Source of the DNA: a virus
Lineage: Duplodnaviria > Heunggongvirae > Uroviricota > Caudoviricetes
Strand: one strand, 5' to 3'
Length of the DNA stretch: 33,153 bases
Virus record (IMG/VR): IMGVR_UViG_2529292972_000025
The notes under the pieces are model-generated. The model was given only the letters and a program-made list of their open reading frames with translations, had not been told where the DNA came from and did no database searches. Below are positions 1,363 through 30,752 of the stretch, piece by piece (position 1 is the stretch's first letter; the number at the start of each line of letters is the position of its first letter). A program made the position numbers and the translations under genes.

Positions 1363-1446
1363 TTAATTTCGATTATTTTTCCCGGATGGAAAATTCTTAG
1401 AAACCGATCACATACAGCTGCATTTATTAAGGTTATCATCCGTTTC

Positions 1447-1533
1447 GCTGAAAAACATAACCCATAAAATGCTAGCTGTACCAGGAACCACCTCCTTAGC
1501 CTGTGTAATCTCCCTTACACGGGCTTATTTTTT
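1447..1533 (+). ncRNA. cyaR: CyaR (RyeE) Hfq-dependent sRNA
   Basis: Sequence GCTGAAAAACATAACCCATAAAATGCTAGCTGTACCAGGAACCACCTCCTTAGCCTGTGTAATCTCCCTTACACGGGCTTATTTTTT recognised as CyaR; ends in terminator hairpin plus U-run; 3' end overlaps the att core. Confidence 0.8.
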
Positions 1534-7048: not shown

Positions 7049-8239
7049 TTAATTGCTGTTAACCGAGGTAACCAGACTTGCCAGGTATCTGGAAGTAATA
7101 CGCTGGCGCAGGGTCAGGTTTTCGAGAGGAGGCACCGGGGTATAGTCGTAGTCGATATACAGTTTTCCGGCCTTGAGGGTTTCCGCATCGTTGGATTCTT
7201 CGCTGAACCAGCAGGTCGCATCCACGATATAGCCGTTTGTTTTCAGCTCACGGAATTTGGCATTGATGCCGTCAACGATGTCGCGAATCAGCGTTGCGGT
7301 GATGGGCTTGTCCACCGCCCACATGTGCGCCTCAGCCATCGTGTCGGCCAGCACCTGCGCGGTGCGGGTGTAGTTTTCAAAGAGGAACAGCGGGTCATCA
7401 GAGCAGGTACGGTTACCCCAGAAGCGGAAACCGTCGCGGCGAATCAGCGTTGTGACGCCTGCCTCGTTCAGCAGGTCAGCATCGGTGCCGGACTCCTGCA
7501 AATCCCAGAATACAGATGCGCTGATGCCGGTAACACCGTTCACCCCGACGTTGGACAGCGTTTTATGCCAGCCCTGCTCCTGGTCGATTTTAGCGCGCAG
7601 ACCCAGCGCACGGGCGGTGGCATACGCGGTGGCGGTGGTACTGGTGACCGTATCCCATGCGAGGAAATCCGGCCAGATGACCATCAGCTCACGCTGGCTG
7701 AAATTCTGGCGGTAGGCTTTCACCTCGGAAATGGTTTTACAGCCCCATGCGCTGATATACCCGAAAGCGCGCAGCTTCTGACAGACTGATGCCAGTGCAA
7801 CAGCCACCTCTTTGGTGTCCAGTCCCGGCACACCGAGAATACGCGGTTTAACACCGGTTACCGACTCCGCCGCCAGCAGGGCTTTCAGTCCGGTGTACTG
7901 ACCGTTTTCGTCGGTGGTACCGATGATATTGGAAACGGTCTGCGCGAGTTTTGTTTCTTCGTCGTCGCCGGTGCCGTCTTCCACACGCACGACTACGGTG
8001 ACCGGTTTTGACTGGTCAGCGATGGCCTGCAACGACGCCGCCAGCGTGCCTTTTTTACCGGCCTTTGCAATTGCGCTTTGCACATTGGTAATCAGCACCG
8101 GTTTATTGAGGGGGAAGGTTTCCGCATCCGCATCGCTGGCCGTGCAGACCATGCCGACAATGGCAGTGGATACGGTGGAAATGACGCGGGTGCCGTCGTT
8201 AATCTCCAGCACCTGCACGCCGTGATGATAGTCACTCAT
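7049..8239 (-). CDS. FI: Contractile tail sheath protein gpFI
   Basis: 396-aa ORF; P2 order and size. Confidence 0.9.
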   Translation of the reverse strand: MSDYHHGVQVLEINDGTRVISTVSTAIVGMVCTASDADAETFPLNKPVLITNVQSAIAKAGKKGTLAASLQAIADQSKPVTVVVRVEDGTGDDEETKLAQTVSNIIGTTDENGQYTGLKALLAAESVTGVKPRILGVPGLDTKEVAVALASVCQKLRAFGYISAWGCKTISEVKAYRQNFSQRELMVIWPDFLAWDTVTSTTATAYATARALGLRAKIDQEQGWHKTLSNVGVNGVTGISASVFWDLQESGTDADLLNEAGVTTLIRRDGFRFWGNRTCSDDPLFLFENYTRTAQVLADTMAEAHMWAVDKPITATLIRDIVDGINAKFRELKTNGYIVDATCWFSEESNDAETLKAGKLYIDYDYTPVPPLENLTLRQRITSRYLASLVTSVNSN

Positions 8240-8298
8240 CCGTTTAACTCCGTGGTTAATGGGTGAGTGGTATTTTCAGTTGTGCCGGAGATGTCAGG

Positions 8299-8892
8299 CT
8301 ATTTGTCCCGGTTGGCTAAGGGATGACACAATTTATTCTTTGTCGCTGATGAGGGGAATTTTTTATAGAGCGTGGACAGGCCAATATCAAAAATCAGCGC
8401 CACACGTTGACGAGATTCCCCCGCAGCCAGCAACCGTCCGACCTGCTCCCACTCACTCGCGGTGAGTTTCGGTCGTCTGCCACCAATACGACCTTTGGCT
8501 CTGGCCGCTTCCAGCCCGGCCCGAGTCCGCTCGACAATGAGTTCTCGTTCCATTTCAGCCAGGGCACCCATCACATGAAAGAAAAAACGCCCCATCGGCG
8601 TGCTGGTATCAATAGCATCTGTCAGGCTGCGAAAATTAACGCCGCGTTCGCGCAGTTCCTCAACCAGAATGACCAGATGCCGCATACTACGCCCCAGCCT
8701 GTCCAGCTTCCAGACTACCAGAGTGTCACCTGCTGATAATGTCCTGAGCAGTTTTTTCAGTCCCGGCCTGTCGGACTTCGTGCCGCTGATTTTGTCCTCA
8801 AAAATCAGCTCACATCCTGCGCACTCCAGCGCATTACGCTGCAATTCCGTGTTCTGGTCATTTGTTGACACGCGTACATAGCCAATAAGCAT
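8299..8892 (-). CDS. Serine-recombinase DNA invertase (Gin/Cin/Pin/Hin family)
   Basis: Product MLIGYVRVSTNDQNTELQRNALECAGCELIFEDKISG... near-colinear with Gin as I recall it; start taken at second ATG (8892), 6 nt after a GGGGG Shine-Dalgarno; sits beside the invertible segment. Confidence 0.9.
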   Translation of the reverse strand: MLIGYVRVSTNDQNTELQRNALECAGCELIFEDKISGTKSDRPGLKKLLRTLSAGDTLVVWKLDRLGRSMRHLVILVEELRERGVNFRSLTDAIDTSTPMGRFFFHVMGALAEMERELIVERTRAGLEAARAKGRIGGRRPKLTASEWEQVGRLLAAGESRQRVALIFDIGLSTLYKKFPSSATKNKLCHPLANRDK

Positions 8893-8947
8893 GAGCATCC
8901 CCCTGAATAAAAACCGGAGATGATGCCAGTTACCCGTTATCTCTGCA

Positions 8948-8973
8948 TTTTCATAAACGTTGGTTTGGGAGAA
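8948..8973. repeat. Invertase crossover site, left (26 bp, hix/gix-like)
   Basis: TTTTCATAAACG-TT-GGTTTGGGAGAA; inverted relative to site at 10809-10834; 12-bp half sites around a 2-bp core like hix TTATCAAAAACC-TT-GGTTTTCAAGAA. Confidence 0.7.
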
Positions 8974-9411
8974 GGCTCTGCATTACCTGTTGGTGTCCCT
9001 GTTCCGTGGCCTTCAGCTACGCCGCCAACAGGCTGGCTGAAATGCAATGGCGCTGCCTTTGATAAGGTTAAATATCCCCGTCTTGCTACAGCATATCCAT
9101 CAGGGAAACTACCTGATCTCCGCGGTGAGTTTATTCGTGGCTGGGATGATGGGCGCGGCATTGATACAGGGCGTGCTTTATTGAGTATTCAGAGTGATGA
9201 AGTCAGAAAGCTCGCATTAAAATACTGGGGACCAGCTTCAAACAGTTCACCATCAAAAACATTTGCACTCAGCGACAGTGCCGGTGGCGGGTTGTACACG
9301 GATGGAATAAGTCAGGCAAGCGGTGGGATTATCAACGCTTTTCAGCTCCCTGGCGGTAACGAAACCCGCCCACGAAATGTTGCATTTAACTATATCGTGA
9401 GGGCTGCATAA
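8962..9411 (+). CDS. Alternative tail-fibre C-terminal segment (Sv-prime), promoterless, in frame with crossover site
   Basis: Reading frame continues from crossover site as GLGEGSALPVGVPVPWPSATPPTGWLKCNGAAFDKVKYPRLATAY...; would fuse in frame to the constant part of H after inversion. Confidence 0.7.
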   Translation, partial: GLGEGSALPVGVPVPWPSATPPTGWLKCNGAAFDKVKYPRLATAYPSGKLPDLRGEFIRGWDDGRGIDTGRALLSIQSDEVRKLALKYWGPASNSSPSKTFALSDSAGGGLYTDGISQASGGIINAFQLPGGNETRPRNVAFNYIVRAA

Positions 9412-10013
9412 TGGATAATGCTGTATTAAATAGCGAGTTTATTGCCACGAAGGCGGGGAATATTACCGTCTATAACTATGATAGTGAAACACGGGAATAT
9501 ATTTCCACATCAACTGAATATCTTGCTGTGGGGGTCGGTATTCCAGCATGTTCCTGTCTTGATGCACCTGGCATACATAAGGTTGGTTATGCAATCTGTC
9601 GTTCTGTGAATTTAAATTCATGGGAATATGTGCCAGACCATCGCGGTGAAATCGTCTATAGCACAGAAACAGGAGAATCAAAAGAAATCACAGCTCCGGG
9701 TGATTACCCTGAAAATACAACCACTATCGCCCCTTTATCTCCATACGATAAATGGGATGGTGAGAAATGGGTGACCGATACTGAGGCACAGCATAGCGCC
9801 GCAGTCGAAGCGGCAGAAGCACAGCGCCAGTCACTGATTGATGCTGCTATGGCTTCCATCAGTCTGATTCAACTGAAATTGCAGGCCGGACGGAAACTGA
9901 CGCAGGCAGAAACAACCCGACTTAACGCCGTGCTGGATTACACTGACGCGGTGACGGCAACAGATACCAGCACCGCGCCGGATGTCATCTGGCCTGAACT
10001 GCCGGAGGCGTAG
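9411..10013 (+). CDS. Tail-fibre assembly chaperone, alternative (U-prime)
   Basis: 200-aa ORF starting at TAATG overlap with Sv-prime stop; inside invertible segment. Confidence 0.7.
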   Translation: MDNAVLNSEFIATKAGNITVYNYDSETREYISTSTEYLAVGVGIPACSCLDAPGIHKVGYAICRSVNLNSWEYVPDHRGEIVYSTETGESKEITAPGDYPENTTTIAPLSPYDKWDGEKWVTDTEAQHSAAVEAAEAQRQSLIDAAMASISLIQLKLQAGRKLTQAETTRLNAVLDYTDAVTATDTSTAPDVIWPELPEA

Positions 10014-10437
10014 GCCATTTAATATCTGGCGCACCGGAAGTATCGACCAGTTCCAGTGCGTCCAGATAATCCAGCCACAGATTATATTGCGCCAGTTCCT
10101 CGCCTTTCAGACGACCAATAGCCGCTTTACCAGGCCATTGTTTACTGTTCATATAATCGTTGGCCTGATTAATTAGTAGCTGTCTTTCTGATTCAGTAAT
10201 TTCAATAAGTTCTTCATGCGTAGGGGCAGGAATATCCGCCCACGCGGGCAGCCCATCACCTCCGGCAATACGGATTTTTCCTTGTGGCGGTTCAGCCATA
10301 AATTCACTGATAATATTTTGACTCACCTCCTTAGCATCTGATAAATCCCATCCCTCTGATTTATATTTATCAATCATATCCACAGGGAAAAAAGCATTAT
10401 GCCTTGCGCTATAAACATATTCGTTCATATAAATCAT
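9985..10437 (-). CDS. G: Tail-fibre assembly chaperone (gpG-like)
   Basis: 150-aa ORF directly downstream of H; true start may be ATG at 10428 (AGGA Shine-Dalgarno); C-terminal ...DIKWPTPPAVQAR resembles the U-prime C-terminus. Confidence 0.7.
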   Translation of the reverse strand: MIYMNEYVYSARHNAFFPVDMIDKYKSEGWDLSDAKEVSQNIISEFMAEPPQGKIRIAGGDGLPAWADIPAPTHEELIEITESERQLLINQANDYMNSKQWPGKAAIGRLKGEELAQYNLWLDYLDALELVDTSGAPDIKWPTPPAVQAR

Positions 10438-10448
10438 CCTGAATAAAA

Positions 10449-11870
10449 TTATTCACCAACAGCCCACCAACTGTAAGTCATTGACACCTTGTCGCTGGTT
10501 GATGCAGTTCTGTAAGCAGAATTAAAGCCGGTTAATGTTGGGCCTTCTACGGACATAACGAATCCACGCCCTGCACCAAAAGGCGCACCGCCATCGCCAG
10601 AATGGGTAAGAATGGCGATATCCGCTTTTTTAGGGAAAGGGATAGGAAATGTAATCCTCATTGTTTGCGTCGATAATTTCGGCATAGCCTCACCTCGACC
10701 ATATTGCAGGATTTTCCCGTTGGGTAATTTCATCCATCCATCACCACTGGCAAACGAGGCCATGTCCGGTATCTGATTTTCCCCTGTCCCCACATTCCGT
10801 TTTGCCGCTTCTCCCAAACCAAGGTATGCGAGAAGACCAGCCACATCCTTTCCACTCAAATTAGTAAGCGTATTGTCCAGCGGTTGTTTGCCTGCCAGTG
10901 CATTAAGCACTGTTGTTGAAAAGTTAGGGTCATTCCCCAGCGCCGCCGCCAGTTCATTCAGTGTATCCAGTGCCGCAGGGGCAGAACCCACCATTGCCGC
11001 AATTGCTGATTTCACAAAAGCCGTGGTGGCAATCTGTGTATTGTTGACCGACTGTGCCGCAGTAGGTGCTGTTGGCGTTCCGGTAAGTGCGGGACTCGAC
11101 AGCGGCGCTTTCAGTGCCAGCGCATTGTTAATGGTGGTGCTGAATTTCGGGTCATTGTTAATGGCTGCGGCAATTTCTTTCAGTGTGTCCAGCGTGGCTG
11201 GCGCGCCGTTAATCAGAGCGGTAATAGCAGCCTGTACAAACGCAGTGGTCGCAATCCGCGTGGTGTTATTTCCTGCATCAGGCGTCGGCGCTTTTGGTTC
11301 TCCGGTAAATGTCGGATTATGTTTCTGTGCATACTGGGTATGAGGATCCTGTGCGGCAATGTGGTTTCTCATCTGGTCATCCACATACAGCCTTAATTCC
11401 AGGACTTCATCATCCACGTATTTACGGGTCGCCAGTACCACCGACGGGTCGATTTTCAGCGTGATGGCTTCGGTATTCGTGACAACCAGAATCATGCGGA
11501 TAGTCTGGGTACGACCACTGCCTTCCTGTAACTGCGGTTTGTACGTTTCCGGGCAGTTCGCCACCGCAATGAGTACGCCTTCATCATCATAAAGCCCAAT
11601 CTCACGGATCCAGAATCCGCCCTCGTTCTCAGGGATGATTTGCTCCGCAATAATCTGGCTCTGGTTATTCGGGTCAACACTCAGAAGATTCAGCGGCGCG
11701 ATGCGTTTCTGGTTAATCAGTTTTGTCTGTGCCGGGTCTGGTGTCGGCAAGACACCATTCGCATCACCAACGGCCATTTGCGTCAGATTCAGCTTACTGC
11801 CGAGCATCGTCGCGTTAGCCAGCCGTGCTGCGCCCTGATTAGTCAGAATGGCGTAGTATTTCACTGTCAT
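10449..11870 (-). CDS. H: Tail fibre protein gpH (constant N-terminal part fused to variable part Sv)
   Basis: 473-aa ORF; crossover site 10809-10834 lies inside it and encodes ..YLGLGE.. Confidence 0.85.
   Translation of the reverse strand: MTVKYYAILTNQGAARLANATMLGSKLNLTQMAVGDANGVLPTPDPAQTKLINQKRIAPLNLLSVDPNNQSQIIAEQIIPENEGGFWIREIGLYDDEGVLIAVANCPETYKPQLQEGSGRTQTIRMILVVTNTEAITLKIDPSVVLATRKYVDDEVLELRLYVDDQMRNHIAAQDPHTQYAQKHNPTFTGEPKAPTPDAGNNTTRIATTAFVQAAITALINGAPATLDTLKEIAAAINNDPKFSTTINNALALKAPLSSPALTGTPTAPTAAQSVNNTQIATTAFVKSAIAAMVGSAPAALDTLNELAAALGNDPNFSTTVLNALAGKQPLDNTLTNLSGKDVAGLLAYLGLGEAAKRNVGTGENQIPDMASFASGDGWMKLPNGKILQYGRGEAMPKLSTQTMRITFPIPFPKKADIAILTHSGDGGAPFGAGRGFVMSVEGPTLTGFNSAYRTASTSDKVSMTYSWWAVGE
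10809..10834. repeat. Invertase crossover site, right (26 bp)
   Basis: TTCTCCCAAACC-AA-GGTATGCGAGAA on plus strand; left half is the reverse complement of GGTTTGGGAGAA at 8962-8973. Confidence 0.7.
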
Positions 11871-12478
11871 GCGTTTACTCTCAGGTTATCAATTAAATGA
11901 ATGGCCGAGGCCGGGAAATAATCCCCTCCGACAATAATGGCCTCCGGGGTGTAGGGATAAACCGTCAGGGCGTCACCGTGATAGCATCCCGCACCGGCAA
12001 AAATGTTGCCGGTTGTACTTAAACTGATAGCCAGTCCCGTCAGATGGCGGCTTGCCGGTTTTGCATCAGCAACGAGACGCTCCAGCTCCTGATACATTTC
12101 TTCGGTAATACCCTGCTCAAGCACGCCAACAACGATACGGAACGTCCCCGGCTCCTCGTTGAGCTGCCACCACTCCCTCACCTCAATCAGATAGCCGAGC
12201 GGCTCCACCACACGGCGAATCGCACCAATAGTGCCCTTATGACAGTGGATGAAATACGCATCGCGGATAACAGCGCGTTTTGTCGCTTCCGGCCAATTAT
12301 CATCCCAGCGGTCAACCGAAAATGACCACGCCAGCCACGGCAGCAGATTTGCCGGGCAGGTGTCCGGGTTCCACAGCTCACGAATACTGACCGGCGTTTT
12401 TTCAATTTCCGCACAGGCTTTTGCGGCGGCAACTTCAAGCGGTGATGAGCCGGTCGGCAGCAGTCGCGAATCACTCAT
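11867..12478 (-). CDS. I: Baseplate protein gpI
   Basis: 203-aa ORF, GGAGG Shine-Dalgarno, stop overlaps H start; P2 order. Confidence 0.8.
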   Translation of the reverse strand: MSDSRLLPTGSSPLEVAAAKACAEIEKTPVSIRELWNPDTCPANLLPWLAWSFSVDRWDDNWPEATKRAVIRDAYFIHCHKGTIGAIRRVVEPLGYLIEVREWWQLNEEPGTFRIVVGVLEQGITEEMYQELERLVADAKPASRHLTGLAISLSTTGNIFAGAGCYHGDALTVYPYTPEAIIVGGDYFPASAIHLIDNLRVNA

Positions 12479-16302: not shown

Positions 16303-16800
16303 TTAAGCCGGTACGCCGCCAGCGGTACGCCAGACGGTGACCAGTTTTTCCAGTGAATGCTCACGCTGACCGTAACCGGCACCCGGCAGGGACGCCCAGA
16401 TATTGCGACAGCGTGAAATGGCGCGCTCAATGCGTCCCGCCCGGATGTCATCCAGTGCACCGCGTTCGCGGATCAACTGAATGGCGAGTCTGTCCTGTGA
16501 CAACGGACTGAAATCCGGCAGGGCAAGCTGTTTGCGGTAATGCGGCCAGAACAGGTAAAGCTGCTGATAGCGACCGGAGGCCGTGGATTTTTCACCGCGA
16601 CGGTTAAACACCTTCGCCGGTCGACCATGTGCGAACGGGTGGTCACTGTAGTCGGTGAAAATTTCCTGCTTTCCGTCCAGTCCGGTGACTATCACGTCAT
16701 AGCCCCGGTTTTTCGTCAGCGGATGGTTCGCCGTCCCTTCGGACACGGCCAGCATGTCGAGAAAGGCGGCGATATTCTGATGCGTGTTAATTACCGGCAT
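16303..16800 (-). CDS. K: Endolysin gpK (lysozyme)
   Basis: 165-aa ORF downstream of holin; P2 order. Confidence 0.85.
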   Translation of the reverse strand: MPVINTHQNIAAFLDMLAVSEGTANHPLTKNRGYDVIVTGLDGKQEIFTDYSDHPFAHGRPAKVFNRRGEKSTASGRYQQLYLFWPHYRKQLALPDFSPLSQDRLAIQLIRERGALDDIRAGRIERAISRCRNIWASLPGAGYGQREHSLEKLVTVWRTAGGVPA

Positions 16801-24873: not shown

Positions 24874-25824
24874 TTAATTTGCAGTATTAGCCTTTAAAGT
24901 AAGCACCTTAGATTTGTAACGTTGCTCAATCACTCCCATTGAATGCAAACGACCAAAGAGCTTTTTGGCAATGATTGTTTCTCTCGCATTTTCGGCGTCT
25001 TTAATTATTTTCCAATAATCTATTTCCCTAGCCATCAAAAAATGCTGCTCATTCCTAACTTTTAATGCATTGCCTAATACAATAACTCCAGTTACCAACT
25101 TAGGCTTATCTCTGGCATATAGTTTTGTTTTCGTTGGGTGTATAACATGCCCATGCTTATTAACGATCTTACGAATTACAGCGCAGAACAATCGATTTAC
25201 GTTACTACCTGAAAAAGTGAGATCATCAACATAAACAGTCATGTTAACTCGTAACTTTTGGCAAAGTTGATATATTTCACCAAACATTCTTGAATTTGCA
25301 AAATATGCCAACGGCATACTGATGCGACTACCTGTTGGCAATCGGTCATGACAAGTACATATGTGAGACAAAACATCAGCAACATCAGATGACATTTTCA
25401 TCACCGAAAAGAAAAAAGAAAATATCATCCCTCTTGTAGTTGATGGAAAAAAAGCTTTAATATCTGTTGTCATCATCTTTTCATTATTAAGATGAGCTTT
25501 AGCATTCGTCACATTAGAGCACTTCTTCTTCCCTGAGTGCAGATATTCTGGCAAAGCAATCCGCGATAACAAACTTGCAATTCGTGTATGTACAAGTTCT
25601 AGTTTTTCTAAAGGCTTTTGTATTTTTCGTGCTTTCCCTTTTTTAGAAAGCTGCTCAAAAACGGAATAGTTTCCTTCATCTTTTCTCAAAGAGTATAAAT
25701 CATCAAGACTAACACAAAGCAAATTCGCCAGTTTTCTTTTACTTTTGAGTTTATAAAATGGCGAATCCATTATGTCATAAGATTTATTTTTAGTATTAAC
25801 TTTAAGCTTTTTCCGTTTTTTCAT
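24874..25824 (-). CDS. Reverse transcriptase, retron-type (defence-associated)
   Basis: 316-aa product with NAKAH (NAxxH), TTDIKAFFPS (motif A), LPTGSRISMPLAYFANS (motif B region), YVDD (catalytic motif C) and LVTGVIV (VTG) in the canonical order. Confidence 0.85.
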   Translation of the reverse strand: MKKRKKLKVNTKNKSYDIMDSPFYKLKSKRKLANLLCVSLDDLYSLRKDEGNYSVFEQLSKKGKARKIQKPLEKLELVHTRIASLLSRIALPEYLHSGKKKCSNVTNAKAHLNNEKMMTTDIKAFFPSTTRGMIFSFFFSVMKMSSDVADVLSHICTCHDRLPTGSRISMPLAYFANSRMFGEIYQLCQKLRVNMTVYVDDLTFSGSNVNRLFCAVIRKIVNKHGHVIHPTKTKLYARDKPKLVTGVIVLGNALKVRNEQHFLMAREIDYWKIIKDAENARETIIAKKLFGRLHSMGVIEQRYKSKVLTLKANTAN

Positions 25825-26110
25825 TTTTATTACTTACCCACTCCAGAACATCCAGAACTTTACCGGCTAAATTTAAACGCAATCGCTTAGACAAACGGCC
25901 TTGCGTGCCTAATGATTCCGAAAAGAATACTAAAGAGGATACTGGTATGTCGAAATGGGAGGCGTAACGCTCTAAGACTTCAATCGACGGTGACCAAACT
26001 CCGCTTTCAAGCGATACTATTTTGTCTTTTGGAATACCTAAAGATGAAGATAACTCAACTATTGATTCTTTATGGTATTGCCTTATTAAACGAAGGGCTT
26101 TATGTAACAT
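25802..26110 (-). CDS. XRE-family helix-turn-helix protein, RT-associated
   Basis: Start at ATG 26110 (GGAG 6 nt upstream) gives MLHKALRLIRQYHKESIVELSSSLGIPKDKIVSLESGVWSPSIEVLERYASHF...; stop overlaps RT start by 23 nt. Confidence 0.7.
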   Translation of the reverse strand: MLHKALRLIRQYHKESIVELSSSLGIPKDKIVSLESGVWSPSIEVLERYASHFDIPVSSLVFFSESLGTQGRLSKRLRLNLAGKVLDVLEWVSNKNEKTEKA

Positions 26111-30742: not shown

Positions 30743-30752
30743 ACGGTTCTCC

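Follow-up and report, generated by a model that had tools for sequence, protein, structure and literature searches.

A Pin/Gin-type inversion switch very probably controls the receptor-binding fibre end of a complete P2-like prophage in Escherichia coli O157:H7

Many P2-like phages and prophages have invertible fibre arrangements that existing records annotate, and the switch they form is of a well-known kind. In the P2-like prophages of EPEC E2348/69, inversion was detected by whole-genome sequencing of clonal populations, in two-variant and three-repeat forms (PMC4272514). The Peduovirus records pro483 and Cartapus have an invertase annotated beside the tail-fibre genes, and the P2-like S164 also has an invertible tail-fibre locus; a search of the literature for pro483 together with an invertase returned nothing. 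Fels-2 Fin, cited in PMC4272514, is reportedly a parallel case among P2-like inversion systems. The classical systems are the P-segment of e14 in E. coli K-12 (stfP-tfaP / tfaE-stfE / pinE), inverted by PinE, the G segment of Mu with Gin and the C segment of P1 with Cin. P2 itself (NC_001895) has a fixed fibre and is without an invertase or second cassette, as the original prediction had stated: H and G are followed there by a terminator, fun(Z), pF and FI.

The DNA analysed here, a stretch of 33,153 nucleotides (IMG/VR record IMGVR_UViG_2529292972_000025) referred to below as the window, represents a complete P2-like prophage of E. coli O157:H7, inserted between yegQ/cyaR and yegR. Some O157:H7 lineages have it, whereas Sakai and EDL933 lack it. 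Its backbone and gene order, taken from what RefSeq annotates for the identical BB24-1 region, are those of P2 (int, C, cox, A, portal/terminase, capsid, lysis, V-W-J-I-H-G, FI-FII-E-T-U-D, ogr), and the best phage matches to the window are Peduovirus records. The N-terminus of H shares 42–51% identity with P2 H and the pF promoter region is nearly identical to that of P2 from the activator site onward, but the position occupied by fun(Z) in canonical P2 is here taken by an invertase locus. The features of this locus (Table 1) make it very probable that a Pin/Gin-type site-specific inversion switch controls the receptor-binding fibre end of the phage.

Table 1. Features of the invertible tail-fibre locus (positions in the window).
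Feature	Position	Strand	Details
Serine DNA invertase (Pin/Gin/Cin/Hin family), intact	8299..8892	-	197 aa, 594 nt from RefSeq start 8892
Putative recombinational (Fis) enhancer, 5' end of invertase gene (gene nt 19-90)	8803..8874	-	Homology only
Left (invertase-proximal) 26-bp site, TTTTCATAAACG-TT-GGTTTGGGAGAA	8948..8973	.	Crossover dinucleotide 8960-8961
Invertible segment, 1,861 bp between crossover dinucleotides	8961..10821	.	Strain 2-6-2 comparison
Silent alternative fibre C-terminus Hv', Collar domain	8974..9411	+	Pfam Collar 8.4e-15
Chaperone cognate to Hv', silent in window orientation	9411..10013	+	Caudo_TAP 1.2e-32
Chaperone cognate to expressed Hv	9985..10437 (RefSeq start 10428)	-	Caudo_TAP 3.8e-30
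Expressed fibre C-terminus Hv, gp53-like	10449..10808	-	Pfam Gp53-like_C 6.1e-11
Right 26-bp site inside H, TTCTCCCAAACC-AA-GGTATGCGAGAA	10809..10834	.	Crossover dinucleotide 10821-10822
Constant N-terminal part of H, baseplate-proximal	10835..11870	-	Pfam Phage_tail_fib N-terminal 3e-62

The invertase gene lies where it had been predicted (ORF 8299-8898, minus strand, 199 aa) and is intact, and its product combines a resolvase-type catalytic domain (PF00239 Resolvase, 2.8e-52) with a C-terminal helix-turn-helix (PF02796 HTH_7, 5.6e-13). A sequence search of the PDB gave full-length matches to the Gin structures 3UJ3 and 4M6F (E ~1e-93; 1.1e-93 for 3UJ3). Protein identity is 97% to the pro483 invertase, 86% to e14 PinE, 78% to P1 Cin and 76% to Mu Gin, PinE being closer than the Gin and Cin of the earlier label. 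The catalytic Ser9 (S9 in Gin, S10 in Hin) and the arginines R7, R42, R65 and R68 are all present, in columns that are invariant in an alignment with Gin, PinE, Cin and the pro483 protein. Residues K46, K47, R50, Q150, R153 and L154 are the equivalents of Hin K47, R48, K51, Q151, R154 and L155, basic helix-B and helix-1 residues that contact Fis and the enhancer and are specific to Fis-dependent invertases (PMC3798978). The C-terminus is 13 residues longer than that of PinE, the extension being encoded by the P2 pF promoter region, and the 3' end of the gene runs into the Ogr-activator site of this late promoter.

The 5' end of the invertase gene aligns ungapped with cin nt 19-90, which the P1 record marks as the enhancer; identity is 79% in this region compared with 67% over the rest of the gene, a comparison confounded by coding constraint. 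Fis-like 15-mers of the form G-N13-C lie at gene nt 22 and 71, as they also do in gin and pinE; their centres are 49 bp apart (G-N13-C count), and the second is G/C-rich at its centre. This G/C-rich centre, and a spacing that differs from the 48 bp between Fis-site centres in the Hin enhancer, count against the reading. Synonymous codons showed no consistent excess of conservation in the enhancer region over the rest of the gene in comparisons with gin (8/21 vs 56/117), pin (16/22 vs 72/129) and cin (10/21 vs 41/118), and for this reason were not used as evidence of an enhancer. By analogy with Hin, Gin and Cin, Fis bound to the putative enhancer would probably activate the invertase, and we infer that flipping depends on Fis.

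The top inverted repeat of the region (8948-8974 / 10808-10834) contains the two 26-bp sites at exactly the coordinates first proposed. The two 26-mers match at 21/26 positions in inverted orientation, with a common central TT/AA, and share an exact 14-mer, TTCTCCCAAACCAA, that occurs nowhere else in the 33-kb window (0.24 matches at ≤2 mismatches expected there by chance). The left site is identical at 26/26 positions to the pinE-proximal site of e14, the other e14 site shares the half TTCTCCCAAACCAAGG with the right site, and the right site is identical to P1 cixR at 20/26 positions by hand count; both line up with the sites of Mu (gix), P1 (cix) and e14. Searches of the window with the 14-mer at ≤2 mismatches and the 26-mer at ≤9 mismatches found no further recombination sites; one 26-mer match with 9 mismatches, at 30747, was taken as chance. 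A multi-site shufflon like that of EPEC, where the locus has three repeats, was rejected because only two sites were found in the window.

Both sites lie in the reading frame of H, as the original prediction had it. Across the right site the protein reads ..LLAYLGLGE|AAKRN.., and the left site, in the same register, reads ..GLGE|GSALPVGVPVPWP..; inversion in silico at the central dinucleotides yields an uninterrupted, in-frame H of 499 aa, with no stop codon at the fusion, compared with 473 aa in the window orientation. Annotations of strain 2-6-2 and phage T22 include an H of 499 aa. Outside the segment, H shares 78% identity with the constant part of P1 S over residues 184–340. Inside it, Hv', which is expressed only after inversion, is related to the collar regions of T4 gp37 and gp12, and its stop overlaps the start of its chaperone gene (TAATG). 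The proposed pair of chaperones stood, both being Caudo_TAP proteins, apart from the start of the minus-strand gene, placed by RefSeq at 10428 rather than 10437. Their genes converge on opposite strands with 3' ends overlapping by 29 bp, and the proteins align only over the C-terminal ~70 aa (38% identity). Hv and Hv' have no significant similarity to one another, and a sequence search of the PDB with the gp53-like tip Hv gave no match; judged on sequence, the two variable ends are unrelated folds and not diverged copies.

The closest relative of the switch is the e14 Pin system and not Gin or Cin. Gene order and orientation are those of e14, the invertase in both systems flanking the segment directly and pointing away from it, and the segment is of similar length (1,797 bp in e14, PMC12529663, and 1,861 bp here). 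However, e14 is a defective remnant whereas the present prophage is a complete P2-type phage, Hv has no match in the e14 locus, and similarity between TfaP and the Hv chaperone is confined to the latter's C-terminal 78 residues (67% identity). Mu and P1 have the same general plan, in which a constant fibre N-terminus lies outside and two convergent cassettes of tip plus chaperone lie inside, with 26-bp sites of AAACC..GGTTT core. Their enhancers lie at the start of the invertase gene, where the putative one is placed here. They differ in phage backbone and in the size of the segment (1.86 kb here; from annotated boundaries, ~3.06 kb for Mu and 4.26 kb for P1), and tblastn of the tips and chaperones against the Mu and P1 cassettes gave no significant match; P1 cin, moreover, faces its segment, whereas the present invertase is oriented as in Mu. 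Cassettes differ in content among the Peduovirus loci: pro483 has an identical gene layout and sites, although its Hv' is only 55% identical to that of the window.

Both orientations exist in natural genomes. Strain 2-6-2 (O157:H7) differs from the in-silico inverted window at 0 positions over 12.4 kb, being identical to the window outside 8974/10808 and to the inverted window over 8957-10822, while strain BB24-1 has the window orientation with 1 difference (at 16734, outside H). The P2-like phage T22 was set aside as an inverted counterpart, its invertase being frameshifted and its proximal site aberrant, and 2-6-2 was used instead. Among 5,426 complete E. coli genomes, the H-side junction was found at ≥98% identity in the window orientation in 12 and in the flipped orientation in 12, and both orientations are present within O157:H7. 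The evidence for inversion is comparative, between genomes, and the even split together with a zero-difference inverted counterpart argues that the switch is real and evidently active in nature, having flipped recently and repeatedly. Every testable element of the predicted Mu G-segment-style switch held.

That the locus is a frozen relic, its two orientations left by rare old events or by homologous recombination, might be suggested by the related P2-like prophage T22, which is locked by the invertase and site defects just described. We give this almost no credence: the window's own invertase is intact, the orientations are about evenly split, both within O157:H7, and RecA would not recombine efficiently over a shared core of only 14–18 bp. 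In addition, the 12.4 kb compared shows 0 and 1 differences in the two orientations, identical flanks that argue for a very recent inversion event.

Which enzyme does the flipping is a separate matter. Invertases of the Pin/Gin/Cin/Hin family complement one another, and other Pin-family invertases of the same genome might act mainly in trans, leaving the local gene dispensable or poorly expressed. For the e14 segment, inversion in trans by PinQ of the Qin prophage has been reported (PMC12529663), the left site has the sequence of an e14 site, and each O157:H7 record has 2–3 places matching the junction query, so that a paralogous invertase could act on the segment. Moreover, a crude sigma-70 consensus scan of 8100-11000 found no invertase promoter between 8893 and 8975 (a terminator scan of the same interval gave only weak terminator-like hairpins and was uninformative). 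Yet no catalytic or activation residue is missing from the intact local gene, its position 68 nt outside the left site agrees with gin and pinE, and the same invertase protein accession is found in 2-6-2 and BB24-1, strains of opposite orientation. Inversion chiefly in trans is thus very unlikely, and we infer that the local invertase, rather than a paralogue, does the flipping.

In the mechanism proposed for the local switch, the invertase would bind both 26-bp sites, cut each at the central TT/AA, and rotate and rejoin the ends, inverting the 1,861 bp between them. In the window orientation the late V-operon transcript would then give the constant part of H joined to Hv, a fibre with a gp53-like tip, together with the minus-strand chaperone; after inversion it would give the constant part joined to Hv', with a collar-domain tip, and the other chaperone. 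A population of lysogens would release two types of virion differing in receptor specificity. Different host ranges are likely because the tips fall into different Pfam families and have no sequence relationship, and would bear on which bacteria this phage, carried by a pathogen, can transduce.

Inversion might instead chiefly serve the host, with one chimeric fibre protein in the lysogen blocking the adsorption of other phages. Such an effect is reported for the homologous e14 segment, where StfE2 blocks adsorption of T2 (PMC12529663), and Hv' is 54% identical to e14 StfE and its chaperone 90.5% identical to TfaE. Here, however, the fibre gene is part of a complete late operon in an apparently intact prophage, and nothing in the locus points to expression in the lysogenic state. 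The P2 late operon needs Ogr and is silent in lysogens, and a mainly host-serving role is extremely improbable. Two related ideas, in which the switch would do more than diversify virions, are very improbable as well: that an H chimera or the free-standing ORF of the silent cassette is made in lysogens and blocks competing phages, and that overlap of the invertase gene with the pF Ogr site couples inversion frequency, or invertase expression, to late-gene activation.

Taken as a phage fibre switch, the locus illustrates a textbook mechanism cleanly and in apparently functional form, and carries little weight as a discovery. One practical consequence concerns the reading of assemblies: two assemblies of one prophage can differ by this inversion and be wrongly taken to show structural variation or misassembly. 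Annotation is affected too. Three O157:H7 records were examined, and in these RefSeq gives the silent cassette as a protein in its own right, named 'phage tail protein' or 'gp53-like domain-containing protein'; in BB24-1 the intact H of the window orientation is annotated as fragments. A genuinely broken H in that strain was rejected: its sole difference from the window lies outside H, and the fragmentation is an annotation artefact.

The locus exists in both orientations in nature. Among complete O157:H7 genomes, 100% matches over 400 nt were obtained both for the predicted junction of the inverted state and for the junction of the given state. Strain BB24-1 (NZ_CP038402.1), in the window's orientation, differed from the window at one base (16734) across the 12.4 kb surrounding the switch; strain 2-6-2 (NZ_CP038419.1), in the flipped orientation, showed 0 differences over the 12.4-kb region from the window inverted in silico at 8960-10822. 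The invertase and both tail-fibre chaperones carry the same protein accessions in the two strains, at the same chromosomal site. In the BLAST comparison with 2-6-2 the flanks match as far as 8974 and again beginning at 10808, and the inverted match covers 8957-10822; these breakpoints put the exchange within the core common to the two recombination sites. At 14–18 bp, that core would be too short to support efficient homologous recombination or to mislead a long-read assembly. When full-length junction matches at ≥98% identity were counted among 5,426 complete E. coli genomes, each orientation was found in 12 (8/12 O157:H7 for the window's orientation, 5/12 for the flipped one). Identical flanks and evenly divided orientations point to site-specific inversion that is both recent and repeated in this prophage, not to an old, fixed rearrangement, and make it unlikely that the locus is a frozen relic. 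The P2-like phage of O157:H43 T22 (NC_041848.1, 4853-5444) does appear to be locked. This close relative, in the inverted state, has an invertase frameshifted after approximately residue 130, and hence without the HTH, and an invertase-proximal site in which the complete H-side site is followed by GACC and by the outer half of the usual left site, suggesting a version that is locked or has recombined aberrantly.

Features of the switch locus and neighbouring elements in the window
Feature	Position	Strand	Remarks
CyaR/RyeE sRNA gene	1445-1530	+	Rfam RF00112, 100.7 bits
Invertase	8299-8898	-	RefSeq start 8892
Invertase 3′ end	8299-8345	-	overlaps pF activator-binding site as annotated in P2
Putative Fis enhancer	8803-8874		within invertase gene
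Silent cassette tip	8923-9411	+	RefSeq 'phage tail protein'
Left site	8948-8973		invertase-proximal
Top inverted repeat	8948-8974 / 10808-10834		within 7500-12000
Silent-cassette chaperone	9411-10013	+	Caudo_TAP; 603 nt
Expressed-tip chaperone	9985-10437	-	Caudo_TAP
H (tail fibre)	10449-11870	-	473 aa
Right site	10809-10834		inside H
H shaft, residues 184-340	10835-11400	-	directly upstream of right site
Retron-like pair	24874-26110	-	HTH protein, then reverse transcriptase

The inverted 26-bp hix/gix-like sites of the original prediction are present, and both align with gix of Mu and cix of P1. Written in the same sense, they read TTTTCATAAACG-TT-GGTTTGGGAGAA and TTCTCGCATACC-TT-GGTTTGGGAGAA, matching at 21/26 positions, with the central dinucleotide and segment-proximal half identical. 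Their common 14-mer, TTCTCCCAAACCAA, occurs exactly twice in the window, both times at the sites (0.24 chance matches expected when ≤2 mismatches are allowed). H reads ...LLAYLGLGE across the right site and the left site reads ...GLGEGSALPVGVPVPWP in the codon register of H, as had been claimed.

The adjacent gene does encode a Gin-like serine invertase (Pfam Resolvase, 2.8e-52; HTH_7, 5.6e-13), with 97% identity to the invertase of phage pro483, 86% to PinE of the K-12 element e14, 78% to P1 Cin and 76% to Mu Gin; it matches Gin crystal structures (E ~1e-93), and Ser9 and the conserved arginines are in place. Residues kept only in Fis/enhancer-dependent invertases (Hin K47, R48, K51; Q151, R154, L155; PMC3798978) have counterparts in K46, K47, R50 and Q150, R153, L154. 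The start of the gene lies outside the segment, 68 nt from the crossover point, and transcription runs outward, the same placement and direction as for gin and pinE. It is plausible that a paralogous Pin-type enzyme contributes by flipping the segment in trans: PinQ inverts e14 in trans (PMC12529663), and the e14 pinE-proximal site is identical to the window's left site (26/26). However, the window's own invertase gene is intact. For its enhancer, the stretch homologous to the annotated Cin enhancer in the P1 record (cin nt 19-90) aligns without gaps at 79% identity (67% elsewhere in the gene) and contains two G-N13-C 15-mers at gene nt 22 and 71, the same positions as in gin and pinE. The same stretch encodes the catalytic N-terminus as well, and its synonymous codons showed no consistent excess of conservation; homology supports its designation as a putative Fis enhancer.

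Inversion exchanges the C-terminus of H and its chaperone, as anticipated, the two chaperone genes lying convergently within the segment. H inverted in silico remains in frame, stop-free and 499 aa long, ending ...NVAFNYIVRAA, and its stop codon overlaps, in TAATG, with the start codon of the 603-nt chaperone gene. The tip expressed in the given orientation is a gp53-like C-terminal domain (PF21882, 6.1e-11); the alternative tip has a Collar domain (PF07484, 8.4e-15), with relatives in the collars of T4 gp37 and gp12. Comparison of tip with tip gave no significant similarity and the chaperones share only a C-terminal stretch (~70 residues, 38% identity), so that flipping swaps two unrelated receptor-binding modules together with their respective chaperones. 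Frames, paired chaperones and the natural flipped counterpart in 2-6-2 all favour the Mu G-segment-style reading, and the locus is very probably a Pin/Gin-type invertible host-range switch. A StfE2-like role in host defence is conceivable, although this analysis yielded no support for it. RefSeq/PGAP annotation of BB24-1, identical to the window here, splits the intact H into a pseudogene labelled 'partial, missing C-terminus' and an independent 411-nt 'gp53-like' CDS, and treats the silent cassette as free-standing, artefacts arising from the invertible fusion.

The P2 record contains neither invertase nor second cassette, consistent with the expectation of a fixed fibre in canonical P2. There the order is H, G, terminator, fun(Z) on the opposite strand, pF activator site and FI, whereas in the window the second cassette and invertase occupy the position of fun(Z). 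Homology to P2 sets in again exactly where the activator site of the late promoter pF lies. The last invertase codons (...KLCHPLANRDK, then stop) are read from this site, making the C-terminus longer than in Gin, Pin and Cin; this extension, coded by promoter DNA, marks the junction between cassette and P2 backbone. The H N-terminus is P2 H-like and the shaft shares 78% identity with the constant region of P1 S, which has repeated elements; this shows the fibre shaft to be a P2/P1 chimera. TfaE of e14 is 90.5% identical to the silent-cassette chaperone and StfE 54% to its tip, and lambdoid and Klebsiella phages contain parts of the segment with 87–90% identity at the DNA level. Fibre modules that are familiar and known to be exchanged therefore make up this mosaic locus.

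This type of switch is already known. Phage pro483 is annotated with the same arrangement (DNA invertase, two fibre ends, two assembly proteins) and has identical sites; Cartapus and S164 have invertases annotated next to fibre genes. Whole-genome sequencing of clonal populations detected tail-fibre inversion in two P2-like prophages of EPEC E2348/69, one two-variant and the other a three-repeat shufflon (Goldberg et al. 2014, PMC4272514), and tail-fibre genes are among the families enriched in systematic screens for programmed inversions (PMC9881135). Given the phage precedents and those in EPEC, the finding is a known mechanism correctly recognised in a known phage group.

The window, 33 kb long, represents a complete P2-like prophage (int, C, cox; A; portal/terminase; capsid; lysis; V-W-J-I-H; FI-FII-E-T-U-D; ogr), inserted in E. 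coli O157:H7 with yegR on one side and yegQ/cyaR on the other. A prophage of ~32 kb has been reported at this position in the SS17 lineage, Sakai and EDL933 being without it (PMC4321836). The CyaR/RyeE gene adjoins yegQ at the ogr end, making cyaR a neighbour of the prophage. Between replication gene A and the portal gene lies a type VI retron-like pair (PADLOC HTH_VI, 6.7e-31; RT_VI, 4.1e-105), likely accessory defence cargo of the prophage.
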